Origin: Vicugna vicugna
Lineage: Eukaryota
Length of the DNA stretch: 64,000 nucleotides
NCBI GenBank assembly: GCA_013265495.1
Contig: MU057700.1
Coordinates: 372,001 to 436,000 of the forward strand
Direction of reading: 5' to 3'
The translations under genes and the position numbers were made by a program. Positions 1 through 55,600 of this stretch are shown in pieces. The notes beneath the pieces were generated by a model. The model searched no databases and was not told the origin of the DNA. It saw nothing but the letters and a program-made list of their open reading frames with translations. Within the stretch, counting starts at the first letter, position 1; each line of letters opens with the position of its first letter.

Positions 1-2382
1 GGAGCCTCCAAGGACAGAGGCTGAGACGCAGGCACATGTGAGCTCCCTGGAGACCCCCGGACAAAGTCCCTTGCCTCAGGTAGCAAGAGGCAGCCTTATG
101 TTCTTCCTCCTCCTGGGCTAGAACCTTCCCAACCCACAGGAATGACCTCCCTCCATGAGGGAAATGACAAGTGCAGAAGAGGACTGGAGTGCAGACGAGA
201 AACATGTCTCATCAAAAAGGATACAGTTTACTCTCTACTGTTTATAAAACTGACATCGATAAATAAAAACACGGACACAAAGTGTTTGCATTTTTATTCA
301 CAAAATTGACAGGCTGCACGGTAAATATGTTTGTGTAGGAAATATTAAAATGGTTTCCTTCTCAAAATACGATTTTTTTCTTAGCTTTAGAACACACTTT
401 CCTTATCTTGCCTGCCCACACTAATTTTGAACTTGAATTGCTCAGTGTCATCTGCAAGGACGCAGGATTATGGTCTCTCCTGGTGTGGTACAGAACTCCT
501 GATGTCACAGTGATTGGCGTAGTCCATGGCCGTGGTTCCCCCCGGCCGTGGTTCCCCCCATGCTGCCTGGCCCAGTTCCCTGACATTGATGTCCCTGAAG
601 CTGCTACAGCGAGATGGCCTCCCTGTCACTGCTCTCCTGCCTGGGCTCCTGCTGAGAGGTCGCGGTTGGCCAGGTCCTGGGATTGAGCACGTCCCAGAAA
701 CATCTGCCAAAATATCTTGTCATTTGACATAGCAATCAAAACCTGGGTTGCACAGGTGAACTGGAAGTTCTTTCAGGGGTTCACAGTGTGTTCCTCTTTA
801 ACTCTGGGGATGAAGCTCATTCTCCCGGCTGTCACACAGCCACTCATCCAGCCTCAGCTGCAGGACACGGCAACATGCTCCAAACTGAAAAATTCTCTAC
901 ATACAGGTTCTGGTTTCTCCTGAGCTCAGCCAAGAATCGTTCATGTGAGTCCCAGCTCCCAGAAGAGATGGGAGGCTCTACAGAATTCTAACAAGGCTGC
1001 CGAGGTTGTTGCCACGGAGAAGGGATGGGGGTGGGGCAGGCACCCTCAGTGGAGGGTGTTTTCTGTAGGTACAGGCCCACCTGGAGGATAAGCACCAAAT
1101 GTGAAGTTCATGCTGAAGGGAGATGCATATTCCCACTGCCGCACTTGCCCTTTCTGACCCAGGGCCCGAGAGGTGAGGATTTCTTAGGCACTTTCTAGAA
1201 CCACCCTACATACTCCCAGCCAACTATTCCACATGTCAACATGCTCCAAGGAGGAGAGGAAACCATTTACTGCTCTGCCTGGGAAAAAATGCTCTAATTG
1301 TAGTGGGGGAAATTATGCCTTCCCACTGAACTGTCTTTTATATATTAAGTATTTGTCCAAGATCTGTTCTCAGACATTATGTTCAACTCTATTTCCAGCC
1401 AAATTAGCTGGATTTGTGGCTAAGGAGTCCTTTATGGGGGCTGGAGGAGAATGTGGTTTTTTTATTTTTTTGGAAAAATAAACCATACACACATACTCCT
1501 AATGGAAGTTCTCTGCTCTGGAAAAAGGGTTTTTCAGTATTTTGGTAGTAGTTTTTCTCAGCATGGTTTTCTAAACATACTGAAGTAAAGGCTGCAGGAA
1601 ACAGCTGACCCAGAAATTATGTTTATTTCCAGTCTCTGTGGTCCACGTTGAAGGAGGAAGCTGAGAACAGACATGGGCACTGAGGGCCAGGACTGGGGCA
1701 GCCCCTGGGTGATGTGTACACGTGCCTGTGTGTGCACGTGCATATGTAGGCACCCAGGACATGACACAGGCCCTCAGTTTCCAATGCACAACTGCAACCA
1801 TAAATCAGATTTCTGTTGGTAATAACTGGCATTTGCCTAATGACCCACCTGCTCCTTACCAGACGTCTAAGAAGGAGCTCAAAGAATTCCTACACAATCT
1901 GACAGGAGGACATAAACGGAAACATTTAGCATCTTAAGCTTCACAGTGGTTCAGGGCAAAATTTCTCCTCCAACTTCTACTGGATTTTCAGTCATGATTA
2001 TGCATTTCACCTTCTCTCTCACAACTGTCCAACTCCAGCTTCAGCAAATAAACAGCAAGCAATTGGCTAGAAGAGCAAAAGTCTGAACTAGGCATTGCTC
2101 GCTGCTTATTTTAGGGGAGCGAGGAATTCCTTGAACGACAGAATTAGCTGAGTTTTAAGTTATTATAAATGTGGCTGTTCGTGTATATATTGTGTAAAAC
2201 AAATCAGTAACACCCCCAAGTGCCTCCTAGTCCTAGGTCACTAGCCCTCCCCAGTGGCCCCCACAGTAGATCCCCTGGTGATATCTTACTCCTTATATTG
2301 AAACTTCAAAATCAGAAATCTGACGTTTCCAACTAGGAAGTTAAAAAGAGAAAAGAAGTTTACACACTTTACGATACATGAT

Positions 2383-2388
2383 TTTATT
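2383..2388 (-). terminator. Polyadenylation signal AATAAA (likely main distal site)
   Basis: Plus-strand tttatt; followed on minus strand by GTGTGT and TTCTTTTCTCTTTTT downstream elements. Confidence 0.65.
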
Positions 2389-3067
2389 TACAGGACTGAA
2401 ATCACTTTCTTAGTCACCTTGATTACAAATTAACACGGTATGGTTTAATAATAACCTTTCATAAATAGATTTAACAAAGTTTAATCAATCACTGACAGAG
2501 TGCTACTTAATACTCAGTAATACTTAACACTCAGTAACTTCTGCATATATGCATATGAAAATTCTGTCTGATAGGACTAATTGATACGAGTACTTTCATA
2601 ACTTAGGAATAGACATTAGATAATGAGTCAAGGGTTAATTCCACTGGGTCAGCCAGTTAGACCTGGAGTTCTCACCCTGCCGAGGACAAACCTGCTGTGG
2701 CCACTCCACTTACCGAGTAGGCATTTTTGAGTTTATTCCTACTTCCGCATTTAACAAGACTATCTTTAAGCACATCTGAAACCCCAAAGTTTACTGCAAC
2801 TAGATAGTTGTAAAAGAACTTATCACAGTGTATCTGGACAATGGCCCAAATATAAACCTAAGCCACGCTGCATCTGCAGTAAGTGTTTTTCCAGAGCTTT
2901 CCCCGGCTGTGTGTGCACAGACTCCACCCCTCCCCAACCCTCCCCGCCCCATGAGGCTCCTCCACATACTCATCCAAACCTTCCTGGCCACAAAAATGCC
3001 CTAATTTTACTGCTTTTGTGAAATGCCTATAAAGTACAGTATTTTCAGGAGATGACCGTAAGTCCGC

Positions 3068-3207
3068 TCACAGTGCTTTAAGTCTGAAGACCAGGCAGTG
3101 TTTTGGTAACCGACCCTCTCCTGCAAGGTTACAGCGCTGAGACAGAAAGAAGAGCCGCTGGGACTTCCCGAAAGCCACCCCCGCAGGATGGGAGGAGCGG
3201 TGAGTGC
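3068..3207 (-). CDS. RET: Putative RET43-like alternative terminal exon (exon 21 ortholog)
   Basis: Pyrimidine-rich acceptor ...cttcactgcttgtttgtggtcacag, phase matches exon 19; (G)THRSSHPAGVAFGKSQRLFFLSQRCNLAGEGRLPKHCLVFRLKAL* resembles recalled human RET43 tail; expression unknown. Confidence 0.5.
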
Positions 3208-3986
3208 CTGTGACCACAAACAAGCAGTGAAGAATGACAAGAAGCTTATGAGTCATGGTCAGAACGTAAGAAACAAAAATGTCGGGCTGTAGCAGCTTTC
3301 AGTGACAAACACAGGAAAAGTGAAGACATGTACCTTCTCACACAAGCTCTATGAGAGCCAAGACATTGTCTTTTCCACATCAGAACTGTAATCAGAGGTG
3401 TAGTGGCCCTTGCTTATTGTTGAGGCTACTTTGAATGTAACTAGCTGAACTGTCCCTTTTAAACTGAGCACAAGTCCCACCCACTAGCATGTGAGATGGG
3501 CCACCACCGCCTTTTGGTGCTGGATGTGTGTGTGGTGGTGGGAGTGGGATTCACAGCAGGGAAGTCTCTGCTGTCAGCAACCCTTGCACAGGAGGCACTC
3601 CCCTTGGACGCCCTTTTCCTCCGTACCTTTCTCTGTTGGGGGTGGGGGAGCGATCCCTCAGCAACGGGGACAGATGTGTCTTGAGAGCCCCCTTTCCTCA
3701 CCCCGCCTGTTGACACAGCAAATACGGCAACACATCTCTCCATTGTGCTAAGTCTAAGAATCATTTTGATCATGATAAAAAAATCATACATCTTCCTAAG
3801 AAAAGGTAACACGATTTAAAAAAAAAAATTCTCAGGATCTCAAATGCTGAGCAGAGTCCTGTCCCGAGGTCCCCTCTTTCCCTCCAGCCCTGGCTGGGCA
3901 TTGACATCATGACAAGGCCTGGCCGAGCTCTCGTTCTGAACAGAGATGTATCATCTGGGCCAGATCTTGTGTTTTCCTGCTGCCTT

Positions 3987-4014
3987 TGTGTGTGTGTGTG
4001 TATGTGTGTGTGTG
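3987..4014. repeat. (TG)n microsatellite in 3'UTR
   Basis: tgtgtgtgtgtgtgtatgtgtgtgtgtg. Confidence 0.9.
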
Positions 4015-4250
4015 CTTCATGTTTAAACTGTGTTGCCTCATTGGGTGGCAACCAGAAAAATCCAACAGTTCAGGTAGTGAGTGAGGAACCCACACGTGTG
4101 AGCACGGAGTGTGTGGGGGTCCCAGTGCGCTACGTCTGCTGGGAGGGAAAATCACCAGCCAGTGTGAAATGCACAAGGAGGGGCCGGCAGCCTTTCCGTT
4201 CTTGGCATGTTTCTCCCCCTTGTGAGTCCATTACCTTTCCCAAAGAAATG

Positions 4251-4408
4251 TTAACTATCAAACGCGTCCATTAATTGTGCCGCTGAGGGTGAAACCATCC
4301 AGTTAGCATATACACTATCATTTGCATATCTTGGACACCCAGTGTTAGTGCCATCGGCTCTCGTGGGTGGTACAGGACTCTCTTCAGGCCAGTTCGGGTC
4401 TGACATGC
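4251..4408 (-). CDS. RET: RET exon 20 CDS, RET51-specific tail
   Basis: (G)[51 protein letters not shown]; tttttag acceptor; Y1096 YANW motif. Confidence 0.98.
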
Positions 4409-5652
4409 CTAAAAATGAAAACAGATCATTTGTTCTGCACTGAAGAACCAAAACTTCATGTGCAGACAGTAAGGCCTTGGCAAAACTCCCTTTGAGGTTC
4501 AAACCAAACTTCTGATTTCTGTGCCAATTGCCTGAAGGGTTTCGTGCTCCAGGTTTCCAAAACATTGGTATATCTAGGGGGAAATATCACGTGCTCTCTT
4601 GGTAACTGCAACTTAACAGAAACTATCAATTTTGACTTTTATAAGCTTCAGACTCGCAAATCTGATTTATATTTGTGGATTGGTTTAACTCTTTTTCTAA
4701 GGCAGCTTAAAGCATCCGCACCTTGCTGTACTACTGCAGCAGGAAGCTTCTATCAAAAGTTCTCTAACGGAAAGGAGCCTGCTTGTCTTCCATCCAAGCC
4801 TACCACGGAGGAGAGGGTCTTCAAATCAAGGGTGCACTCAGGCGAGTCCCACAGCGTCGACGGGACAAATGGCAAGTAGCACTAGCCAGCAAGGATTCAG
4901 TGACTCAGGAGGCATGCAAAAGGAACAATCTCAGCTGAAAAAAATGCTTGAAACTCCAAGATTTCCAAACAATCAGTGATGACGTTAGGAAACAGCAAAA
5001 AATTTCGAGTATTGAATCGAAGACGAAAGAAGGAGTTTTGGCAAGAACCATATTTACTGTCCATTGCAAGACCACAGCACCACAGACCACGTTCTTTCAA
5101 AAAGCGCTTTGCTCCAGCTTTTAGCACTGACTTTATAAGTGACAACTGTCATGACAGCGTGTGATGCAAAGGATGTGAAAACAGCCGTCTGCATGTGTCC
5201 TCCCCGGTGGTGGTCCCCAGCACCGGGTGACCTCCAAGAGCCACGGCCTGCCCAGACAGGGCCTGGAGGGGACCACTGGCTGCTCCTCCTTTCTAAATGA
5301 AATGCCTCCCCAGATCATGTAAATTTCTCTCAGTAGTTAAATTAGAAGTACTATGACTATGACCCACCCCAGAAATGACTTATTGTTTTCCCAATATCCC
5401 CTGAGAATTCTGCCCCACTTTTTCTTCTTTGTCATCTTAAATTGCTGGGCAGTCTGGTGATTACACATATTTTCACATCCTTTAAAAAAAAAACACACAC
5501 ACACAGTTGTAAAAATGCCTGAATGTAAACGGATGCAAAGTCAGACATTTACAAACAGAAAGGTTCAGAGCAGACTTTGGTTTCATTCAGACCAGAAACA
5601 CTCTTAAAAAGCATTACAGAGAGTAAGGACAGCGCAGAGAGGAACAGTGTGG

Positions 5653-5684
5653 CTAGAACCTAGTAAAGGCATGTGAAATTCTAC
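5653..5684 (-). CDS. RET: RET9-specific tail by read-through into intron 19: (G)RISHAFTRF*
   Basis: GGT AGA ATT TCA CAT GCC TTT ACT AGG TTC TAG, identical to the known RET9 tail peptide. Confidence 0.97.
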
Positions 5685-5829
5685 CATAGAGTTTGTTTTC
5701 GATCCACGTGGAGGGGAGGGCTCGAGGGAGGGGAGCGCTACTACAGTCCACCAGGGGCATCTCCTCCTCCGAGAGGTCGTCATACAGCAGGGAGCCGGAT
5801 GGGGTGGGTGCGGCCAGGTCCAGGTAGTC
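5685..5829 (-). CDS. RET: RET exon 19 common part (Y1015, Y1062), 145 nt
   Basis: Manual translation [48 protein letters not shown]; cag acceptor, G|GTAGAA donor. Confidence 0.97.
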
Positions 5830-7141
5830 CTGGAAGGGAGAGGTGGCTGGTCACCCCTGGCGCGGGCCTCTACCGGACATGCCCCGGCCCTCCCCGCATC
5901 AGAGGGGAGCCCTGGCCGAGTCGCACCCCAAGCCTACTGGCCGCTCCGTGGGACCTGAGCCCCTTGCCGATTGCCAGCCCTGAGCTCCCCCACACCTGGC
6001 CATGCTCTGTGGTCCCCACTGCTCCCCACTGGAAAGCCACCTCCCTGGGGGCAGAAATGGGTTCCTACTAGCCGAGTCCTCTCCCTGCAGCACTGGGGGC
6101 ACCAGGTCCAGCACTGGCAAACTGGCCTGTTTACAAAACCCGAGGCTCTGGGAGAGCTCGCTGCAGTCCCATGACTCAGATAGGAATGCCAAGAAGTATC
6201 TCAATCTGCCGAATTCTTTCCAGCTTTCCTCCAGGCACTCCTGCCATTTAGAACATCACTTCAGGACTCAGAAATCTGAAGTCACGGATGAGGGTTTTGC
6301 ACAGGATGCTGCTATAAGCTTCAGCTCCCAAGTATGACAATTCTGGAGTACCTGCTATTCCCACGGCCCTGGTTAAATGTGTCGTGAACGGTTGAAGCAT
6401 TTTTTTCTGGCTGCTTCTCAGCACTGTTTTAGGAAGGCCGTCTCAGCCTCAGCTATCACTTTTGTTTAGGACAACCCTGCACTCATAGGATTCGGAGGCT
6501 TCCACCAAGTGATACACTGATGTTAGGTTTTATTACAAGTCGCCTCGTCCATGCATCTTGCTTTTTGTGTTGGTAGAAATGACAACTTTTAGTAAATGTC
6601 TCAGTGCAAGGATGAACTGCGAGGGCAAGGTCTGGGCCTGCTTTGTTTATGTGTATCCCCAGCATCTAAGGCGGAACACGGTACACAGCAATGGCTCAAG
6701 TAATATTAGTTGGAACTTTGCCGACTTCTCAATTACCCAGAGTATAACCTGGAGGCCCAGGGATATGTTTTGTTTGGCCCACGCTGAGCTTTTGGAAATT
6801 TAAATGAATTGCTAACATTAAAAACTTGGAAACTTAATATAAATATCCCATAAAACTCAGAGGAACTGACCCACTGGCACTCATATTCTTATAGGTTACG
6901 TGTGCCTACGGTGAGGGGTCCTTTCGAGGCGGCTGGTGGGCTCCCATCTGTCAGAATCTTCACTGCTCCCTAGTCTCCCCGCTCCCTGCACTCCCGGCTG
7001 GGCCCCTCAGAGCATCTGACTTCCAACTAAGTTCTCATGTTCTGTTAATGAAAATGATTCTGTTTGGCTTTGGAACATTTTCCTCCCACCCCTGCCTGTG
7101 GAGGGCTCTCAAGGTAAAAATCTTGGTTTCCTCATGATTTA

Positions 7142-31710: not shown

Positions 31711-31879
31711 CTGCGGGAAGCAGGGGAGCCCGTGAGGGAGGGAGGGACGGTGACGGTGATGCCAGAGCCTGAGCAGGCCTCCCGGGCAGACCAGTGTTCC
31801 CCAGCAGCTTTATTTCACACTTGTTAAAATTATACATATATACCAGCAACAAAAACTGAAACATATAGTTTCTTTGTTT

Positions 31880-37180: not shown

Positions 37181-39595
37181 GCTGACCCCACCCAGGGCCC
37201 TGCCAGCTGGCAGCCCTTTACTGCTGGCACCATGTGTCAGGAAGAACTTCCCAGCTGGGGAGCTCAGACCTGCCTCTGCTGAGAGCCTCCCCTGGAACTT
37301 TGGGCAGGTCAACAAAGCAGGACTTGCAAAACCTTTCCCGCCTATGCCTTCCACCTCTGAATGCCATGGGGTGGGAGTCCTCCGCCGACACCTAGCCTCA
37401 CGTTTCTGCCTGCCTGCCAAAGGCCCAAGTCACCGCATGCATTAGGAGGGACACCAGGAACCTTCACGGCCTCTGTGTGTGTGTGTGCGCATGCGTGTGC
37501 GTGTGTATTTCCTGAACTCCGGTAATGGAAAGAGAGATAGAGGTGCACCGGCCCAAGACTCCACCTGCTCCACTCTGCCCTGCCCCGCCAGGAAAAGACG
37601 TGGAACTAACATCAGTGAGGCGGACGTGTGGTTCTGCTCAGAGCAAGGCCTCCTCTGACATCTTCATTACAAGTAAAGCTCCCAGGGCAGTGACGGTCTC
37701 ATTCGGTGCACGAAGTCACCAGCTACGATTCTGCAGCTACCCGTACCTTTCTGTACCCTGGAAAGGCAGTTTTCAATGTTAGTACCTGGTTGGGATGTGC
37801 AATTTATTTGTATTTGGATGCAGATAGAACCAGGTCCAAGTTCCCATCCCCATCTCATTCATTCAACCCATTACAAGCTCACACGTGTGCGCACACTCAC
37901 CCATTCACTCTTACCCACCCGGCCACACGCACACATTCTCACCCCTGCACTGGACTCTCTGAGCCCCCTCCTTTGCGGTGGAGGACACCGCAGGTGGACA
38001 AGGGCTCCGCTCCTGCTTCTGGCTGTTATCCCTTGCTTTTGCAGCACAGGGGTGCAGGCACACCCCGCCTGCTCCACCCCAGCCGCAGGCCGAATGCCTG
38101 CAGTCCCTGGGAGCCAATACTCTAGGATCACCTTCCCATAATCCCTCAGACGCAGACGCCTCTGCACACCCACTGACAGCCTCTGCTCCCTGTGCCCTGG
38201 AGGGTCACCTCCTGCTGGTCCTGAGGCTGCAGGCCAGTCCTGGCCCTGGGCAACCCAGCCAACTTCTCCACACGCAGTGTGCTGCCACCCAGATCCCCCA
38301 GGGGGCTGTGACCCCAGCCTGGGGAGGAGGCTTCTTCCCTGGGCGCCCACCCTCAGCCTGAGGGTGGCCCACAGAGCTCTCTGACATCTCCCTCTCATCA
38401 CTGTTAAGAACTCTTATGTTAACCTCTCCTGTTTCATCTGCTGTGTGGCTGCTGCCTCCCGATTGGACCGAGACTGATACACACATCTCCCTCTCTCACA
38501 TATACATTTACGGTCACACACCCTCACACACATTCTCTCCCACTGTTGCACACTCATACCCCCAACTCCAACTGTCTTGCTCACTTAATGAGACACAGTG
38601 AGCCTGCCGGGCCCTGACCCTAGGCTCTCCTTCGCCAGCTCTCCATGGCCTGACCAGCTCTGGCCATCGCGGTCAGCACACAGCCGCCCTGAGTTTCCTT
38701 TGACCTCCTCACCACCCTTGGTGGAGGATGGGCTGCCATCTGACCGTGCCAGTCCTGATCCAGGCCAGCACCTCCTAACCGGGCGCCCCTGGCCTCCCAC
38801 TCCACATCTGGGCCTGTCCTCCAGGCCACCCAGAGCACCTGTGAGTCACACTCATTGTGGCCATCCTGCCATGGACATGAACAGAGCCTTGAACAACTGA
38901 AAATGTCCTAGGACTGCAATATGAAAGCCAGGATTTGGGGCTCTCAAGAAAGAAAAAAACACCGTGAGATGGTATGTTCTGTGAACTGAGTGCAGTTAGC
39001 AGCCGTGCCCACATCTGTGTGCAAGGCAGACCCTTCCTGCAGCAACAGCTCACCGGGCAGTCCTGGCTGCTGCCCCTGATGAGTGCCAGATCATGCAGAT
39101 GACAGTTTTATTATGGCCCAGCAGAGTCTCCCTAACAGACCGTTTCCTAATGCCATCATCTTCACTGGGAATGGGAACCAGACCTCATGGACTCCTCCCC
39201 AGGGACGGGCCCTCCCCACGAAGGCCAGCTGTCCCCATGGGGGGTCCCTCCAGCCCCACCGCCCAGACAGCAGTGCTTGGCACCATCACCCTCTCAGGAT
39301 GTGGCCCGTCTACCCCACCGCCCCTCCTCCAACATCCCGCTCACGTCTTCTCTTTCTTCCAGTTGAATATTTGATATGTACAGAGAGTACATTTTGCAGA
39401 GCATTTATGCGGAAAGCATATGCTAGAACAGACACCCATGAACCCACAGTAGCAACGCTGCTCCCACGCCCCCACCTCCCACTGTCTCTCACTCACTGCA
39501 AACATGAGCCCGGGTCTTCTGCCTTTCTTGCCCCTCCCCCATCTTTTCCTTTCTTTTTTTAACTGCTTTTTTGTTTTTACTGCTTTTACCTCATT

Positions 39596-39763
39596 TTTTT
39601 AAAACAATTTTTATTGAGTTATAGTCATTTTACAATGTTGTATTAAATTCCAGTGTACAGCACAATTTTTCAATTATACATGAACATACATATATTCATT
39701 GTCACATTTTTTTTCATTGTGAGCTACCACAGGATCTTGTATGTATTTCCCTGTGCTATACAG
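39596..39763 (-). mobile_element. Short young L1 3' end with target-site duplication
   Basis: L1 3'UTR terminus flanked by ttttacctcatt at 39584-39595 and 39764-39775. Confidence 0.8.
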
Positions 39764-40099
39764 TTTTACCTCATTCTTGAAAGGTATTTTTGCTGGGTAG
39801 AGCATCCTTCAGGACAGTGATTCTGTCCTTCAAAGGCATGATTCCGCTGTCTTGCTTCTGTTTCTGCTGCTGAAAGCTCTGTGCTCGTTTTAATTGTCAC
39901 TCCCTAGTATTCCATCTTCTCTCTGGTTGTTCCTAGGACCTCCTGTGTTTAGTGCTCTCAAGTTTCACCATGATTCATCAGCCTTCTCACCTGGAAAGGT
40001 GTTCTCTCTCCAGATTCCCCTCCAGCAAACGGCAGCCAGTCCCATGGCTCGAATGACTGCCTCTGGGCTTAGGAATGCAACAAGCCCTGACCTTGTCAC

Positions 40100-40575
40100 A
40101 GATCTCCACCAACTTGCTTCATCCCCTACCACATCTCCATCCAGCCTCCTCACCCTAGTCAAGGCACCACACACCTCACTGTTGAGGCCACACACCTTAG
40201 ACTCATGCTGAGCCCTTGCTTCATTCACCCCTTACACCAGCCCACAGACTGCCCTCTGCCACCCCGCTGCCCAAGCTGCCATGCTCGCTCCCCTCCCTCC
40301 CCTGCATGACACCATGACACCAGTCTCTCTGAGCTCCCTCTTGACCCCATAAGCCACTTCCCACAGAGCAGCCAGTGTTAGTGGGATGTCACCCTCTGCT
40401 TAAAGCCCCGCACTAATCATCCACTGCTTGCAGAATAAAACAAACCAGGGCTGAGGCCCCATTCGCCCTGCTCAACTCAGCTCCTCTCCACCCTCGAGGG
40501 TGCCCACCTCCCAGCCACACTGGCCAAATCACAACATACGAGCAGAAAAAACAAGTGAATGAATGAATCAATGAA
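40100..40575 (+). mobile_element. L2 fragment
   Basis: tcaccctctgcttaaagccc...cagaataaaacaaacc, ends gaatgaatgaatcaatgaa. Confidence 0.5.
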
Positions 40576-41195
40576 GGAACAAATCTAACAGATAAATTAT
40601 TTCGTGAACAGGGGTGAGTCATGGCTGGGCACGTATGGGAAATGGTCAGAATCCGGGCTAGGAGAGGGGCGGGGCCAGGGAGGCAGTGAGATTAGACTCA
40701 GCTAAGATGCTCTGGGTTGGTCTGATGGGCACTGGGAGCCACGTGGATGCTCAGCAGCAGGATGAGCCTGATGGAGCCTCGTCCTGTGCTCACAAGACTC
40801 GGGCGAGGCGTGCAGTGCCCTCTGGCTGCCTTGGAGAGGCCAGCAGTTGGTGTTGAGCCAACAGCCAAGAGAACAACCCAGAACAAAATCACTGACCCCG
40901 GCTCAGGAAATGACTTACTGTCAACTGAGGAACCCTGCCAACTGGCAGATGTTAGGCAGAACGTGTGTGCGCACTCACACATGCACGTGCGTACACCCGC
41001 TAGTGTGCACTCACAGGCAGGGAGACCCTGTAGTACACGTCACACACCCTGGATTTTGATGCTTTGTGCCAGCTAGAGGTTGGTTTTGCAAGAGACTGTA
41101 ATGTAATTTTGCTTTCAGGGAAAAAACTACAGATCGGGGAGGCTTTACTGCAAATAACAATTTTTTTAGAGGGATATATATAAAGGGGATCCCAG

Positions 41196-42275
41196 TTTTT
41201 AAAATTAATTGTGGTAAAATACAGAACATACAATTTATCATTTTAATCATTAAGTGTATAGTTTAGTGACATAAAATAAATTCACATTGTTTTGCAACTG
41301 TCACCATCATCCATCTCCGGAACTCTTCATCTTGCAACACTGAGACTGCACACCCACCCATTCAACACTAGCTCCCCACTCGCTCCAGCCCTGGCAATCA
41401 CCATTGGACCTTCTGTCTCTGAATCTGACTATTCCAGGCACCTCGTATGAGTGGAGTCACGCAGTATTTGTCTTTTTGTCACTGGCTTAATATCATTTAT
41501 CATAATGTCCTCAAGGTTTACCTATGTTGTAGCAGACATCAGAATTTGCTTCCTTTTTAACGTTGAGTAATATTCATGGATTCACGGATACACCACATTC
41601 TGTTTATCCATCCATCCATCCATAGACTGTTAGGTTGCTTCCACCTTTTTGCTATTGTGAATAATGCTGTGATGAATGTGGGTATACAAATATCACTTTG
41701 AGACCCTGGTTTAAACTCTTCTGAGTGTATACCCAGAGGTGGAATTGCTGGATCATATGGCAATACTATTTTTAATTTCTTGAGGAATTTTAATGCTGTT
41801 TTTCAGAGCGGCTGCACCATTGTACATTCCCACCAACAGGGTACAAGGGTTCTACTTTCTCCATATCCTTGCAACAGTTGTGATTTTTCTGGTTTTTTTC
41901 TTTTTTTTTGATAGTAGCCATCCTGATGGTTTGAGGTGACACCACATTGTGATTTGGACTTGCATCACCCTATTCATCAGTGATGCTGAGCATCTTGTCA
42001 CATGCTTATTGGCTGTTTCTTCTTTGGAGAAATGTCTGTTCAAGTGCTTTGCCCATGTTTGAATTGGATTTTCTTGCTGTTGTTGTCATTGAGTTGCAGG
42101 CGTTTTTGTCTATTCTGGATGGTAACCCTTTATCCGACACAAGATTGGCCAGTACTTCCTCCTGTTTCACAGGCTGCCTTTTCACTTTGTTGCCTGTGTC
42201 CTTCAATGTTTTAAATTTTGATGCAATACAATTTATCTATTTCTCCTTTCTTTTGCCTGTGCTTTGGTGTCATGT
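41196..42275 (-). mobile_element. Old L1 (L1M-type) 3' fragment
   Basis: Degenerate ORF2 peptides MNRHFSKEE and PYDPAIPPLGI...ALFTIAKRWKQP on minus strand. Confidence 0.9.
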
Positions 42276-43656
42276 ATGTTTGAAGGATGTGCCCACAACT
42301 CTGTCTTTAGAACCAAGGCCAAACAGAACCGGTCAGTTCTTGGTCCCACCTGGCATCCCTCCAGCGCCGCCCTGGCTGCCTGCCACAGGCCAGGTCCTAC
42401 CCGGGCACTGCCGGTTCCTGCTGTGGTTCCCGCCTTGGCTGCTACTCACTCACAGGGCCACGGGACTCGGGTGCAGGAGAGACCTGAATGGCTGAGGGGC
42501 TCCCTGGCCACGTGGGCCCACCCTCAGTGCCAGGCTCCCAGGGGTCCTTCATTTCTAACAGCACCAACAATCAGCCGCTGAGTAACAGGCTCCCTCAGTG
42601 CACACAGTGGCACAGTGCCCGGGCCCACACAAATGTTTCAGCTTATTTTAAAGACAGAGGTAAGAAAGAAATATAATAATGACTGCGAAATAATAAAGCA
42701 GCCTGGATTATATCTGTTTTTGTATCAACAGACACAAAATATAATTTTACTTTTTTTATGGGGAAAGGAGCCCACAGAGGTCACAAGGCCTGAGCCCACA
42801 GTGGTTATGATGTGGCCTTGGCTCCAGAGAGTCACCTGATACCTACAGAGAAGGCAGAGCCCAGACCGAGGCCAGCTGAGTTTGGCCCAGAGCCCCTTCC
42901 TCTGCCTGTGTGGCCGTACCTCCTGCCCACGTGTGCCAAGGTGCCAACCCCAGGAGTCCCGTGTGACCACTCACTGCACCCTGCCTGGCATCTTGCTCCA
43001 CAACCCAGTTCCTTTCTGCCTCCCCTACATCAGGGGTGTTCAGAGGGCTCTGGCCTCCCCTGACCCTGGGCAGCCACCACACACATCTGTTCCCAGGTGT
43101 CTTGCTGGGCCCCCCATGCCTGGCCCCATGCCTGCAGCCTTGGCCTGCAGGTCCCATTGTCACACCCTGGCTCTGGGCTTTGAGTTCACTGTTCCCAGCC
43201 TTGCCCACAGCTCCCAGGTATGTGGTCCCCTGACCTCATCTTCTCTCCTGGGTGAGCCCCTGCCCAGCTCAGCCTTTCCCCCCACATCCCGGGCCATGGT
43301 AGCCCTTCCTTCCTGAACTCTCAGAGCACTGACCTGAAGCTAACAGAAGCAGAGGCCAGCACATCCCATGACCCAGGCCCTGCTCTGAGCATGGTGCCTG
43401 CTCCATCACAACCTGCCAGGGGCTACTCTCATCAGCCCAAGTTCAGGTGAGGAAGCTGAGACCAGAGAGATCAGGGGCCTGACTGCGCCCCAAGATGTGA
43501 GTGGGAGTGGCCAGTTAGGCCTCTGCTTAAGTGTGAGCCATGGTAGGAAGGTCTACTTCCTCAGCAGCTCTGCCCGTGAGCATGGAGGGAGGCCCCTCAG
43601 GCCAGCCCCACCGTGGCACTGATGGGATGTTCAGCCCCTCCCTGTGTGTGTGGCTA

Positions 43657-44035
43657 TACCACCACCATTACCCAACCCCCATCACCACCACCGCCACCTA
43701 CACCATCGCCACTACCGTAACCACCACGCTCACCAGAACCACCCTCACCACAACCATCATCACCATCACCTTGGCTCCCCTACCACCTATACCATCACCT
43801 CTAGGACTCCACACCCCCCACCATCATTATCCTCACCCCCAGCCCCCAACCACCACTTGCACCATCATCACCCTCCCCACAACCATCACCTTCACCCCAC
43901 CACCTTCACTACCACTGCCCACCACCACGTACACCATCACTCACCATCAAGCATCATCACCTTCATTCCACCCCCAACCACTGCCACCACTGCCATTTTC
44001 ACCACCATCACCATCTTCACCACCACCATCACTTT
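43657..44035. repeat. Degenerate (CAC/CAT)n low-complexity tract
   Basis: About 380 bp of accaccaccatcacc-type triplets. Confidence 0.9.
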
Positions 44036-45419
44036 GCCAGCCATCCTGAGGCTTCCAAATGAAAGCAACTTTGGCAGGTTTGCCCCACACAAACAGTGGG
44101 AAGAAAGCTGGGTTGTAAAGACCCACGGGACCCTCGCTTGTCTGATGCCTGGCACAGAGCAGTGTGAAGGGAAGGCCTGGGGAGGGTTTGAGTAACTTGA
44201 TGGTCCACAGCTACCTCCCTTTGAGAGCCAGCTGCCTCTGTTCACGGGTCCTCGTCTCAGCTCAGCTGTACTCAGTCACAAGCCAAAGCCTCCTTTGGGG
44301 GACATCTGACAGCGTGTCCCAATCCTGATGCTGGAAACTGAAACCTCTGTCAGTAAAACCATCGAGAAAATGCTGGCCTCTGCAGGTGCATGCAACAGAT
44401 GGACAGCTCAGTGTATACAGTGGGTGCCCGATATATCAAGGCCAGCTACACCCCTGGTGCCTAGCGAGGACTCCAGTCACCACTAGTGCAGCCTCAATTC
44501 CAGTCTTAAATTCCTTCTTCCTTCAATGCTGCCTGCAGGCCTCAGGGGGCAGCCTGTGCCACTGTGGCCTCAAGGCTGAGTGCCCTGCCTGGTCTGGCCT
44601 GGGCAAGCTGGATCGGCCTGGCACAGGAGGAGAAACACTGGGTGCCCGGGCTTCCCAGGGAGACCTCTGGGGCTCTCCATGCTCCTGAGGGCTCGGTGTC
44701 ACACAGAGCCCAGGCCCCTGCCTGCCTGTCTGGTCGGGGGCTTCACATGCAGCACAGCTCTCAAGGCCCTTCTCACCATCATCCCTCCAGCCCCGAACCC
44801 CTCCACTGTGTGTTCCCTGGTGCGGCGGGACCCAACATGGGGGTGCAGTGTCTCCCCAGACACCTATTTTCTAGGGCTCTGTCTGGACAGGGTGGCCGGC
44901 GGCCTGGAAAAACAGCTAGATGGAGGAGGAGAGACCAGAGGGCCAGCCCTTGCCTCAAGGCCCCACCATCCCGGCACGCCCGCCACACTCCTCGGCATCG
45001 TTAAAAAGCTCTTCCTCGCACACCTTGCCTGAGCTCTCGCTGTTGGCCAGACACCTCGCTCTCCCCATCTAATGCTGGGAAACAGAATTCACCTCTTGCA
45101 CTCCAAGTGGAACTGTCCCCAGGGCCGGGGTCTCCTGACACTGCCCATGTCCTCCATGCGGCCCTCTGCCTCGGGTGGGAAATGGGTTGGAGCACGGCTG
45201 AGGTTTGGGGGAGTGAGGTGTGCAGCTGAGGTCTGCAGCCCGGCAGCGTGGGAGCCAGCAGCCCAGACCCATCCCCTCTCTGCACACAGGCCCCAGCCTT
45301 CTTTGCTCCCAGAGGCCTGGGCCCCAGGCTGTGCCCAGTACACAAACCCCCGCGGCCACCACCCACACTTCCCCACCCGCCCACACCAGCTGCAGGGGAC
45401 TTGCTCAGAGGATGGACAC

Positions 45420-45610
45420 TCTTGCCGAAATGTGATTTCCCAGCTGCCACTGACTTAATCACCAGCCACCCTGGCAGTTCCTTCCGGCTTCTATGCAAAG
45501 GAAACTGCCAATTAGGTTACAATTAATTTCTTACCCAGGGCAAGGCCTGACTAGAAAAAGACTGGCCACCCAAGTGGCCTGCTGATGACTGTGCGGGTCA
45601 CCAGGCCCCC
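45420..45610. promoter_or_regulatory. Core of intron 1 enhancer, ortholog of human RET MCS+9.7 (RET+3)
   Basis: Minus strand CAGGCCACTTGGGTGGCCAGTC...GAAATTAATTGTAACCTAATTGGCAGTTTCCTTTGCATAGAAGCCGGAAG matches recalled human sequence around rs2435357; about 11 kb from TSS. Confidence 0.75.
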
Positions 45611-48099
45611 TCAGCTCCAGGGCTCTGGTGCCCTGTGGCCCCAGCCAACTGTGGGTGTGCCAGCCCCAGCCTGGAGGCGACAGATCAGGACGTCACCAGC
45701 TTTGACCCTGGTGCCTCTGCCTGGGCAACTGTCCCCCTCACACTCAGCAGGGCACTGTGACTCAGACTTAAACAAAGCTGTCACCCCACCTGTCTCCAGC
45801 TCCCTGAACAGAGATGGTCCTGCCCATTTTTATCCCTACGCTCCAGCACCCTTCTCGACCATGTTCAATCTTAACTGGTAAGACTTTTAGATTCTTGAGA
45901 AACCATGCCCTAAGTGCTTCACATGCATTGTCCCCCTTAATCAACACAACTGCCAGAGGTAGCGACGATTATGATTTCTGTCTTACCTTGGCTGAGGGCA
46001 CACAGAGATTGAGCTGGGATTTCAGCCAAGGGTCCCATCTGACCAGCATGTGTGGCCACCAGGCTCCTCTGCTCAGGGTGGCCGTGCACACACATGCAGA
46101 AGAGCCAGGGCACCATGACTTGGGACTCCGGGCCACCCACCCACCTGTTTGCAGACCAGGAGGAAAATGCAACCACAGATAACTGTCTGCAGCCTCTTTT
46201 GGCCTCCTTTGAAAGGCAGGTGCTCCTAAAAGTTTCTTCATATAAGGTTGCTCTTTTACATTGCAGTGAGATAGAGCGAGGGCGCAGGAAGGCGTGAGCA
46301 GGCAGGAGTTTGCTCAGGCAGCATCCGCCTGACGGACAGACACAGTAATGGTGGCTGTGTGCGCAGGCGCCCACGGATGCTAGGGGCCTGACGCGCCCAG
46401 GCCTGCTGGACACAGACGTGAGCCTGGAGGAGTCCTTCTCTCTGTCCCCTGCTGGGTCTGAGCACCACCAAACGCTTGAGAAGGTGGATCAGGCAAAGCC
46501 CACCTTCAGCACGTAGATGGTGACCCACAGCTTGTACCTCCTGGTGGGGGTGCTCAGGGTAGCCCCTGGGGGAGCAGCACCCACACAGGGCCGCCCACAT
46601 AGGGTGATGGAAGCAAAGCCTGCGGCAGCCTGTCTATCCAACTGGGACCCACTGCAGCTCGAGGGGCTGCTGGGAGGCCATCCTGCGTCAAGTCTGAGAG
46701 GAATGGTGGGGGTGGGGGGTGGTCCGACACTCTCAAAGGAAGACCATTCTTGGACCTGGGGCTGGACAAGTTGCAGGTGCTGAAGGCCGACTATGCACCC
46801 ATGCAGACCAGTGCTGGGGGCCCAGACCTCAAAGATCCCAATGTCAAGAATAAAACAGAACCCAACTCCAGGGCCGGAGCGGCTGTGAGGAGGAGTCATG
46901 GCAACCAAGTCCCCAGCTGATGCCTTCCTGCTGCAGGACACCTCACACCTGTCTCCAGGCCTCAGCTTATCCGTCTATAAAATGAGGGGTTGCTCCTGAT
47001 GCTGAGGCTCTTCCAGAGCAAATTCTGATCCCCTCTGAGTCTAGAGGACATCTGTGCAGGAGCATTCATGGGATGAGCTTCCTGATCAGGGGCTGAGAGA
47101 CAGGATGGTGGGCATAATGGAAATCAGGGTGGGCTTGAGCCTAAGGTGGCCCGTGGGGGGCCAAGGACATGGGGGCCGGAACAGGATTAGGACCCCACAT
47201 ATCCTCCTAGGCTGCCGATGATAAGGCAAGAAGACCTGAGTCTGGATACAAAGGAGAGATTTCAGCATGATGCGAGGAGGCAGAGAGACGAGGGCAGAGC
47301 GGGGCTGGAGCCATGCTCCTTCCTGCCCCGCTGTGTGGCTGGCTCGGCTCTCAGCCTGTCTGGATCTGTTCCCAGCTGTGGACTGGGACATGAACTCTTG
47401 CCTGGAAGCACTGCTGGGACAGGGCTTTGCTGGTGGAAGCCAGAGCCAGTTCTCATCCTTTCTCCCTCCCTGACTCCCGAATGAGACTTGCCTGGACCCA
47501 CAAAAGCTTCCTGCTACCTCCTGATCAAGGCCTTCCCACCCCATGCTGGGCCCTGGCATTCGTGCAGCTTCTGGGTGGGGGCAAGGTGCACTTCCCTGGT
47601 ACGTTCTGCTGTCCCAGGAGAACTGCTTCAAGGGATGGGCAGCATGACGTCACACAGCTGCAATTATGGTAATCAACTTGCACCAGATCCACCTGATTAT
47701 TTTTAGAGTCTGCATTGAGACTAAGCAAGACAGGGCAGCCCTGGGTTCCCCTCCTGCTGAGTCCTGCCTTGCCAGGTGGGCTGGGTGGGTCGCTGGTTCC
47801 TGGAACCCCTACCTTCCTCTACCTCCTGGGTCCTTCACAGGATAGTCCTCGGGCATCAGCGTCTCACACACAAGACGTGACACCATTGCTTCTGGGATGT
47901 TTGAGCTCAATATGGCTTTAGAGTCCGGATCCTGTGAGAATGTCCTCAGGGTCCCAGTGGGGTCATGGTGACTCAACCCCACAAAAGGGCATTGGATGAA
48001 CCCATGTCCTCTTCAAAAGGGACCTGGGGCTCAAGATGCCGACAGAAACGTCTCTGGATGAAAAGTGCTTCTCAACAACACTTGGTGGAGATTTGATAA

Positions 48100-52690: not shown

Positions 52691-55600
52691 AGCCAGCAGA
52701 CAGGTAATGCTCAGCCCAAGACAGGCAGGCCCTGAGGCTCCTGTGGGCTGGCTGCTGCCGGCATCGGCCAGTTCAGACCAGGAGACCTTCCAGTTCAGAC
52801 CAGGAGACCATGGAAAGGAGTCCTCGCTCAGGTCACAGAGTGGGGAAGGCCTCAGGGGAGGCAGCAGCTTCCCGGCCCTCCCTTCCCCTTGGTACCCCAG
52901 GCTCCATTTTAACAGATATCATCATTTTTCATTAGTTTTCTCCTCCCCTGGCTAAAAGGCCATTAGCTCCCCATTAGGTGACAGCATCCCATTTTCTTCA
53001 CACCACCGAGGAAACAGTGATTTACTTAGCCACCCCTAAAGCAATTCTGCAGAATAAAGGCAATTTAGCAATGGTCTCAATAAACTTCGCCATTTGCTCT
53101 CTGCTCACAGACCCCACCCTTAGGAGCCCACCAGCTGACCCAGCCCCTCAGGCCCTGGGTGGGTTGGGCCCTGCTAGGGCCCAGAGTAGCCAGCCTGGGA
53201 CAAGGGCTGCTCCCAGAGGCCAGACGCGCTTAGTGGGTTGGGGTGGAGGAGAAAGAAGGCTGGGCCCAGGTAAGCCTGGTGAAGCAAGACATGTCTTCCA
53301 CGAGTCCCTGGTCAAAGAGAGGAGGGGCCGAAAGAGGCAGAAAGAAGTCGGCAGAACAGCCTTCCTGGCTGCAGGGCTGCTCCAGCATCTGCTGGTCCAG
53401 GCAGAGGTGGTACACCCAGGCCCAACCACAGCCTGGGGAGGGGGCCTCCTAAGTGATGGCCATCTTCCCTTCTTCAGTACCTGGGGGTGAGACGGACTGA
53501 AAGGCGCAGAGGATGTGTGTGCAGGCAGAGGGAAGGCCTTTCTTTCCCCGTGGCCAAAAGTGCTGAGCAAAATGGAACCCAAGAAGCCAGGCCAGAAAGA
53601 TGAGAGAGTGAGGCCTGGTGAGGAACAGCAGAAGGTCAAGGAGATGCCGTTGGGTGAGGGGTCAGCCTGAGACATTCAGGGGAAACTCCAGAAGCTGGGA
53701 CTCAGTCTCCTGGTCCAGGCAACAAGATGGCTTTACCTGCACTGGAGCAGCACAAGACCAGAATGTCTTCTGAGAACTTTCAGATGCAAGTCCTTCATCT
53801 CTGGTTCCAGGACAGCCAGGGTTGATGGGCTGTGCTCCTGAGTGTGACCGGGGAAGGGCAGCTGCCCCGGTGTATACAGGTGGGGGTTCCAGTGTGTGTG
53901 TGGCAGAGAGAGGGGCTGGGTTCCTTGGGTGAGGGTGGAGTGTGAGGGGACAGGCTGTGCTGTGTGAGTGGATGTGTGTCCACTGGCCTCATGATCACAT
54001 ATCCTTGAGAAAGGGCAGAGTGTGTGTTAGTGATGACCAAGAGTGAGTGTGAGAGCGTGTGAGCATGGATTCAAGGGTATGTGTGTGTGCGTGCGTGTGT
54101 GTGAACGCATGGATACCAGCCTGTGAGTGAGGAGTCCTGCCCTGATCTGAGAGTCTGTGTCTGGGCTGGCACCTCTTTCTGAAGGTGTGTGCACTCCCAC
54201 ACAACGAGGGTGTGTACGCGTGGAGGGGGCAGGCCTTGGGGTTTGCTGATGTCTCATGACCTTGCTCTGAGCATCCCTGGGTCCACCTCTGCCTGCCCTG
54301 AGGCAGGGCGGTTCCCTCCCCTGCATTTCCAGTCTAGGCCACTGCCTCTTCATCTGGGCTGCCTCCTTACCCTATTCCCTCAGTTCCCCAGCACAGAACG
54401 GAGCTTCCAGTCTTGGGGAGGTATCTGGTCCAGTAGGGGAAGGCTTTCATTCTCTCGAGACCCAGCCCATCCCCCAGGCAACAGGCCCAGCCACTGAAGG
54501 GCTGCATCCACAAGAGGGCGCCCGGAGGCCGAGCTGCTCCCAGCCTGGCGGGGCTCACGGGAGGCCGTCTGGGGCGGTTCAGTGAAAGCCAGGCTCCCCA
54601 GCTCCAGGATTGCTTCTCCGTGAGGGGTGCCTCTCCAGAGGCCTAGCTGCCTCCTCCTGGATACTGCGGGACCACCTCTCCCCTCTTAGTGCCTCCAGGC
54701 GTGGTTTCTCGCTCATCCCAAGGGAAGGGTGGGTAGGGCAGGGGACCCACTTTCCCTGGATTGGAGAGCCTTTTTTTTTGACCACCCAACTCCATGGGTC
54801 CGGGGAGAGGAAAAGCTCTCCTGCATTCCTGTCAAGTGTCACAGGCCCCCTCACAGTACACCCCCACCCCCCAACCTTGTCCAGGCCCCCACAGCCTTGC
54901 TCAGCACCCTGGCTATGCCTAGGGCTGTGGAGAGGCACAGGGGAACCATACTGACTTCAGGCACACATGACACCTCCCAACCCCCAACTACAAAGTTGCA
55001 ACCCAGAGTTACAAGTGGTCTTCAGAACACCTTGTGTGTGTTTACTTCTGCCCTGCCTTCAACCTCCTCCTGCCTTTCCCCTAACAGCACTGTGACCCTC
55101 AGAGTCCCAGTGCTGGAAACAGACTCTTTCCCCCATCCTTTCCCAGTGCAAGGAAAGGGTTTCTGCTCTGCCTTCCCTATGATGGACTGGAGACCCATTC
55201 TGGCTTCGGCATCTGTCTCTTGAGCCCAGGATCCAGTCACACAAGCGAAGCCTTGCGCAGGCATGTGCACCCAGAGTCTGTGCAGGACCAAAGGCTAGAA
55301 GCAGGAGACTACGGCCTCCTCTGATCCCAAAGGCCACAGGGAGAGAAAGCCCTGTGTGAGGAGTCAGGGAGGGTGGTCGGCTCCTTCTCTCTGGGAGGGA
55401 AACTTGATGTATAAATAAGTACTTCAGAAAGGGATCAAGTTAGGTACAGTTCAAGGGGAACTAAAATTCATGGCCAAGGAGGGTCAAAGATTCACAGCCC
55501 TGTAGTTCATTCATTCTGACAGTTTGGGGGTGGGGGCGGTGACCAGCTTTTGCAAGGCCACATCTAATCCTCCCAGCACCGACCCTGGCGGCACACAGCC

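Follow-up and report, generated by a model that had tools for sequence, protein, structure and literature searches.

The 3' end of RET in the window

The window, by which we mean the whole 64-kb stretch of DNA analysed, carries the 3' part of mammalian RET on its minus strand. When a human RET isoform (P0016) was used as a tblastn query, exons were found from 31726 down to 5686. Exon 19 (5829-5685) encodes 48 residues and the first base of the next codon, reading ...CTC TAT G at 5685; it is identical to the human isoform at 42/50 residues, with a one-residue gap, and is followed by a phase-1 donor, G/GT, whose GT occupies 5684-5683. Read-through into intron 19 yields the RET9 tail, (G)RISHAFTRF (5684-5653, with the stop TAG at 5655-5653). 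The coding part of exon 20 (4408-4251) follows an acceptor AG at 4410-4409 preceded by a U-run, tctgttttcatttttag; it encodes the RET51 tail of 51 residues and ends with TAA at 4253-4251. All of these features lie on the minus strand. It is only beyond Y1062 that RET isoforms diverge, with consequences for adaptor binding, trafficking and oncogenic strength.

Canonical poly(A) signals further downstream on the minus strand begin with an AATAAA at 2737-2732 and continue at 2485, 2449 and 2388; neither AATAAA nor ATTAAA occurs on that strand between the exon 19 donor and the signal at 2737 (5684-2738). RET9-type transcripts ending in intron 19 would therefore need a non-canonical signal here. 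The exon-21-like stretch that is our subject lies upstream of 2737 and thus within a long RET 3'UTR. A donor-like AAG/GTAATG, recognised by reading the sequence, occurs in the same UTR 16 nt after the RET51 stop (4238-4226, minus strand, the exon side ending at 4235).

Several other features of the region were recorded. The RET51 3'UTR contains an imperfect (CA)n run, acacacacacatacacacacacacaca, at 4030-3985 on the minus strand and a T11 run near 3830. An Rfam lncRNA match on the plus strand (5343-5524) was rejected, having scored 17.5 bits against the 43 needed. Two kinase-domain tblastn matches on the minus strand, 12210-12007 and 11956-11804, are separated by about 50 nt and overlap in the query, which suggests that the intron between them is very short or that an alignment ran too far. 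The GC skew of the plus strand is -0.13 to -0.24 over 38001-46000, so the RET sense strand is G-rich there; this segment is upstream of the exon at 31726 and presumably lies in the large first intron. Internal repetition is scarce in the window: blastn against itself gave 12 self-matches, and there is one short tandem repeat (52768-52809).

An in-phase acceptor and an open frame in the RET 3'UTR

The exon-21-like body (3207-3068, minus strand) consists of 46 in-phase codons closed by TGA at 3070-3068. It is preceded by an AG at 3209-3208, the end of an acceptor string, ttcttgtcattcttcactgcttgtttgtggtcacag, in which the AG follows the pyrimidine-rich ttcttgtcattcttcactgcttgtttgtggtcac. The junction reads CAG/GC (3210-3206) and is in phase with the phase-1 donor of exon 19, so that the first codon of the tail would be split between the two exons. 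Translated from that codon (G + GC) onwards, the tail is GTHRSSHPAGVAFGKSQRLFFLSQRCNLAGEGRLPKHCLVFRLKAL, followed by the TGA; it has no tyrosine and no recognisable motif. In another frame, the minus strand at 3122-3078 reads ...TKTLPGLQT and stops at TAA (3080-3078), and this reading corresponds to the C-terminal end of the RET43 tail in human. The donor, acceptor, phase, frame, TGA and shifted KTLPGLQT reading with its TAA had all been located in an earlier note on this DNA, and every one of those coordinates proved correct. The open frame, by itself, does not exceed chance expectation: of the 416 AGs that follow the exon 19 donor in the window, 65 (15.6%) open at least 46 in-phase codons, and the stop-codon frequency of this UTR (0.043) gives 45 open codons a chance of 0.14.

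The sequence in front of the AG has the look of a 3' splice site. We delimited a 48-nt pre-acceptor block (3256-3209, minus strand) that comprises two branch-point-like motifs, TTCAC (A at 3228) and CTCAT (A at 3249), a tract rich in U and C, and the first base of the AG. A third such motif, CTGAC, has its A at 3259, outside the block; positions -20 to -5 hold 11/16 pyrimidines and no A, with C at -3 and G at +1. A crude filter that required at least 11/16 pyrimidines and a Y at -3 was passed by 32 of the 416 AGs, among them both the candidate and the true exon 20 acceptor. Branch-point-like motif, pyrimidine tract, YAG/G and conservation across species (see below) are thus all present at this predicted site. 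The RNA around it may also be structured. The predicted fold of 3300-3150 has an energy of -48 kcal/mol (z=-2.6; 3/200 shuffles as good), and an inverted repeat (3261-3244 with 3225-3211, minus strand) pairs the CTGAC/ATGA...AAGC region with GCTTGTTTGTGGTCA just before the AG, forming a predicted hairpin that could hide the acceptor. No Rfam family matched the block in a search of 2000-6000, and an exact 29-mer from the block had no match in the genome-contig and viral-contig collections.

Correspondence to human RET exon 21

Human RET43 is reportedly formed by splicing of exon 19 to exon 21 (as Myers et al. 1995, Oncogene 11:2039, are said to have described). The same paper is the one cited for human RET43 in a passage of PMC4734678. 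Human RET 'isoform s' (P0016, NCBI) ends ...NKLY DAQHSSSLVGAAFGKSQQLFWLCCQHCNFAEKSRITKTLPALQT, its tail running DAQHSS...KTLPALQT, and 1062 + 44 gives 1106 residues, in agreement with the RET43 length given in passages of PMC7583994 and PMC8948417. An alignment to human exon 21, which the earlier note had proposed as a check, finds homology. With isoform s as tblastn query, tail residues 825-857 fell on window 3196-3101 (54.5% identity over 33 residues), and the last 14 residues, 851-864, fell on 3122-3081 in the other frame (57%). By BLASTP, the window and human tails are identical at 18/35 positions. Instead of the RET43-type end ...KTLPALQT after 43/44 residues, the window tail reaches 46 residues and ends ...VFRLKAL.

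The position of the human splice point was provided by P0007, an unspliced open reading frame of primate type. Its residues 17-60 are the tail of human isoform s without a difference (44/44), and they are preceded directly by MTHKLLVILHCLFVVT (...LFVVT), which is the translation of the pyrimidine tract ahead of the AG. The human splice point therefore corresponds to the window AG at 3209-3208. Taken together, these alignments indicate that human RET exon 21, with which RET43 terminates, has its orthologue in window 3207-3068.

The window itself is not of primate origin. An Alu core motif has 0 matches at ≤3 mismatches in the 64 kb, and this, with the 42/50 identity of exon 19 to human, marks the window as non-primate. 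As judged from the alignments, exon 21 DNA and its splice site are thus shared with non-primate mammals, and the tail of primates is one of several readings that differ by frameshifts. Several statements of the earlier note are borne out by these results: the human RET43 tail that it gives is correct, as NCBI human isoform s shows; the divergence of the window and human tails near their ends by a frame shift is seen both by tblastn and by frame-by-frame mapping; and its view that the exon sequence and acceptor predate primates agrees with an orthologous stretch having the same acceptor position in a non-primate window.

Annotated isoforms and transcripts

We then asked which annotated proteins carry this tail. 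Among 8000 candidates scored, three did: human isoform s, human isoform w and siamang isoform X13, all of them primate. Isoforms are merged in the protein databases at 90% or 50% identity, so that RET43-like models from non-primates could have gone unseen, and the merging at 90% together with the limit of 8000 candidates makes this primate-only result weak evidence. A query with the tail against longer proteins gave one hit among three candidates, an unspliced ORF. As to sequencing runs, 20/24 contain part of 3000-5900; five of the runs are on record as RNA and hold 0.56-0.64 of the words of this segment.

A study by Carter et al. 2001 reportedly dealt with the conservation of RET splice variants and may already describe non-primate sequence. 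In our literature search, RET43-like exons or transcripts were not reported for any non-primate mammal. Passages of PMC10015789, PMC8948417 and PMC7583994 describe human RET43 as a low-level transcript, and a passage of PMC8533768 describes its protein product as not demonstrated. RET9 and RET51 appear as the conserved isoforms in passages of PMC9108399 and PMC7583994, and it is the tails after Tyr-1062 that decide adaptor binding (PMC3189609).

Related sequences on public contigs

Nine relatives (P0002-P0008, P0011 and P0015) were obtained from three protein searches and one representative search. The latter gave nine hits at E≤0.001, of which four were kept (P0006, P0007, P0011, P0015); P0009, P0010, P0012, P0013 and P0014 were dropped as long multi-stretch matches of 31-38% identity, and P0012, the one inspected, is repetitive and unrelated. 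A locus on a metagenome contig (L001, the one locus from 272 pattern matches) was also set aside, being an unrelated A+T-rich contig that does not align. On their public contigs all nine relatives are unspliced ORFs, whose start falls within the tract preceding the AG; none is a spliced form, and they are not mutually independent. Each was mapped back onto the window frame by frame.

The mapping showed that the frame of the tail is often changed. P0003 and P0004 are in frame with the window without gaps, and P0005 and P0006 are in frame with two and four codons missing, respectively. The frame changes near 3160, right after AFGKS, in P0008, P0011 and P0015, near 3120 in P0007 and near 3078 in P0002. 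Non-triplet indels within the 46 codons are thus present in 5/9 relatives and the window frame is kept in 4/9, counts that give no share of mammals with an open frame, since relatives are visible only where frames are long enough to be called ORFs, within the searched lengths. The end ...KAL of the window is found in P0003, P0005 and P0006; P0004 has lost the stop and reads on for seven residues. By these sequence comparisons, the frameshifted tail of the window is shared with the contigs of at least four other mammals, P0003-P0006. The first residue of the tail is D in 8/9 relatives and G in the window alone. The AG is retained in the same proportion, 8/9, as deduced from T/A followed by D. 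The exception is P0015, in which VVT is followed by H, indicating that the AG is lost; the conserved block is still present there.

Conservation of the pre-acceptor block and of the tail

We compared the conservation of successive segments, pooling the nine relatives and scoring each against the window at the level of translation, not DNA. Upstream UTR (above 3256) was identical at 44/69 positions, the 48-nt block (3256-3209) at 138/144, tail codons 1-16 (3208-3161) at 90/135, tail codons 17-46 (3160-3071, in whichever frame aligned) at 178/247 and downstream UTR (below 3071) at 156/231. The tail as a whole (268/382, 70%) is thus hardly distinguishable from the flanking UTR (200/300, 67%; Fisher p=0.36). 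The block (about 96%) stands far above everything else (468/682, about 68%; Fisher p=5e-14), and it is better conserved than the tail in 9/9 relatives. Conservation does not end with the tail: in P0015 it reaches about 2770, beyond the stop, and in P0002 about 3490 on the upstream side. The peak on the block, and not on the tail, suggests that selection preserves the acceptor or an RNA element rather than the peptide, which, on these translated identities, drifts like UTR. In protein-level comparison, then, the stretch does not behave as a coding exon: frame and stop are not kept among the relatives and the tail is not above the neighbouring UTR. The pattern is accordingly the one that the earlier note had named as refuting its proposal, that of plain UTR with indels of any length. 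It does not support the open frame as the mark of a preserved isoform, since five of the nine relatives shift frame and the tail is conserved no better than its flanks.

These results make it very improbable that a functional RET43-like protein isoform (a 'RET46') is conserved outside primates, with its tail selected for the signalling context it would give after Y1062. Such an isoform would agree with a frame that is open and in phase, with four relatives in that frame, three of them (P0003, P0005, P0006) having the same ...KAL end, and with a single frame through the first 16 tail codons in 9/9 relatives. Those 16 codons are, however, identical at just 90/135 positions, and the identity of the entire tail equals that of the UTR (p=0.36). 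Moreover, 5/9 relatives shift frame, P0004 has lost the stop and one relative has lost the AG. The tail itself offers neither a tyrosine nor a recognisable motif, and, according to PMC8533768, a protein product has not been demonstrated even for human RET43.

The stretch might also be plain conserved 3'UTR that is never an exon here. The open frame would then be inherited chance, and the 48-nt block would be a UTR regulatory element, either a site for pyrimidine-tract or GU-binding proteins or the arm of an RNA hairpin. The equal conservation of tail and flanks (268/382 vs 200/300) and its continuation well beyond the stop, to about 2770 in P0015, speak for such an explanation; it would also accommodate the persistence of the block in P0015 despite loss of the AG, the predicted hairpin (3261-3244/3225-3211, z=-2.6, 3/200 shuffles as good) and the restriction to primates of annotated tail-bearing isoforms among the 8000 candidates scored. 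Yet the block looks in every respect like a 3' splice site, lies exactly at the human splice position and keeps the phase of exon 19; at +1 the window carries the consensus G, in contrast to the A of 8/9 relatives; no Rfam family matches the block; and the collapsing of isoforms at 90%/50% identity could hide non-primate RET43-like models. We hold this explanation to be possible but doubtful.

A conserved acceptor without a conserved frame would also be explained if the acceptor closed an intron in the RET51 3'UTR, from 4235 to 3208 (about 1 kb), the joining of exon 19 to exon 21 being a by-product of exon 20 skipping. The donor-like site 16 nt past the RET51 stop is close enough to that stop for the spliced mRNA to escape nonsense-mediated decay, to which a 50-55 nt rule applies. 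The count of 21 RET exons in the literature (PMC5889499) also fits. Against this, the putative donor is known purely from how its sequence reads, and the long contigs with relatives (up to 7234 nt) all keep the acceptor region unspliced. An intron of this kind, as read from the sequence, seems unlikely.

A probable minor splicing by-product

We judge it moderately probable that the stretch is the orthologue of exon 21 behind a competent and conserved acceptor that is occasionally used, giving a minor RET mRNA whose tail peptide is not under selection. This site, intact and strongly conserved among placental mammals, is most likely competent as a 3' splice site. We infer that in this species, as in humans, exon 19 would now and then be spliced to the AG at 3209-3208, which has to compete with the stronger and earlier acceptor of exon 20; the candidate acceptor looks weaker than the exon 20 U-run and is transcribed later, so rare use is to be expected. 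The resulting minor mRNA would encode a product that retains the kinase and the docking motif NKLY(1062) and terminates with a lineage-specific tail of 46 residues without tyrosine, the tyrosines of the RET51 tail and the C-terminus of RET9 both being absent. The primate RET43 tail and the ...LPKHCLVFRLKAL tail of the window would be frameshifted versions of the same DNA. In short, the exon-21-like stretch is probably the source of a minor by-product and not a hidden functional isoform. Several observations run counter to this explanation. The block persists in P0015 despite the loss of the AG and may therefore be conserved for a reason unrelated to splicing; the predicted hairpin could hide the acceptor; the annotated tail-bearing proteins among the 8000 candidates scored are all primate (3/3); and none of the nine relatives is a spliced form.

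A stronger version of the same idea, which we consider rather unlikely, is that the exon 21 acceptor is an ancient placental element under strong purifying selection and that splicing into it is regulated outside primates too. If so, regulated splicing from exon 19 would swap the context after Y1062 and remove Y1096 and the RET9 C-terminus, while regulated splicing from the donor-like site just past the RET51 stop would swap the 3'UTR. What would matter is then the loss of the RET9 and RET51 tails, or of about 1 kb of UTR, and not the peptide gained, and a switch might be provided by the hairpin, in which the branch-point region is paired with the acceptor. Under our preferred reading, a minor by-product of an occasionally used acceptor, the conserved object is likewise the splice site and not the peptide. 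This argues against seeking a conserved function of the RET43 protein and modestly redirects attention to the reasons for the strong conservation of the acceptor block.

Comparison with known RET isoforms

The candidate resembles human RET43 in gene, strand, place in the long 3'UTR past exon 20, acceptor position and phase. The first ~37 residues of the two tails are homologous, and 34/53 residues are identical when the pre-acceptor block is included. They differ in length (46 residues in the window, 44 in human), in the first residue (G in the window, D in human), by a one-codon gap in mid-tail and by a frameshift near 3120, after which the window ends ...LPKHCLVFRLKAL and human ends ...ITKTLPALQT. 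The ORFs of P0002-P0006 are 69-82% identical to the window ORF and have the tail version ...FAGEG.LPKHCL.F.LKAL in common with it, so the window is not unique; these ORFs depart from it in starting with D instead of G, in gaps of 0-4 codons, in the lost stop of P0004 and in the terminal frameshift of P0002. The RET9 and RET51 tails, both present and intact in the window, are, like the candidate, alternative C-termini that diverge after Y1062-G through the choice made at the exon 19 donor. Unlike them, the exon-21-like tail changes frame in 5/9 relatives.
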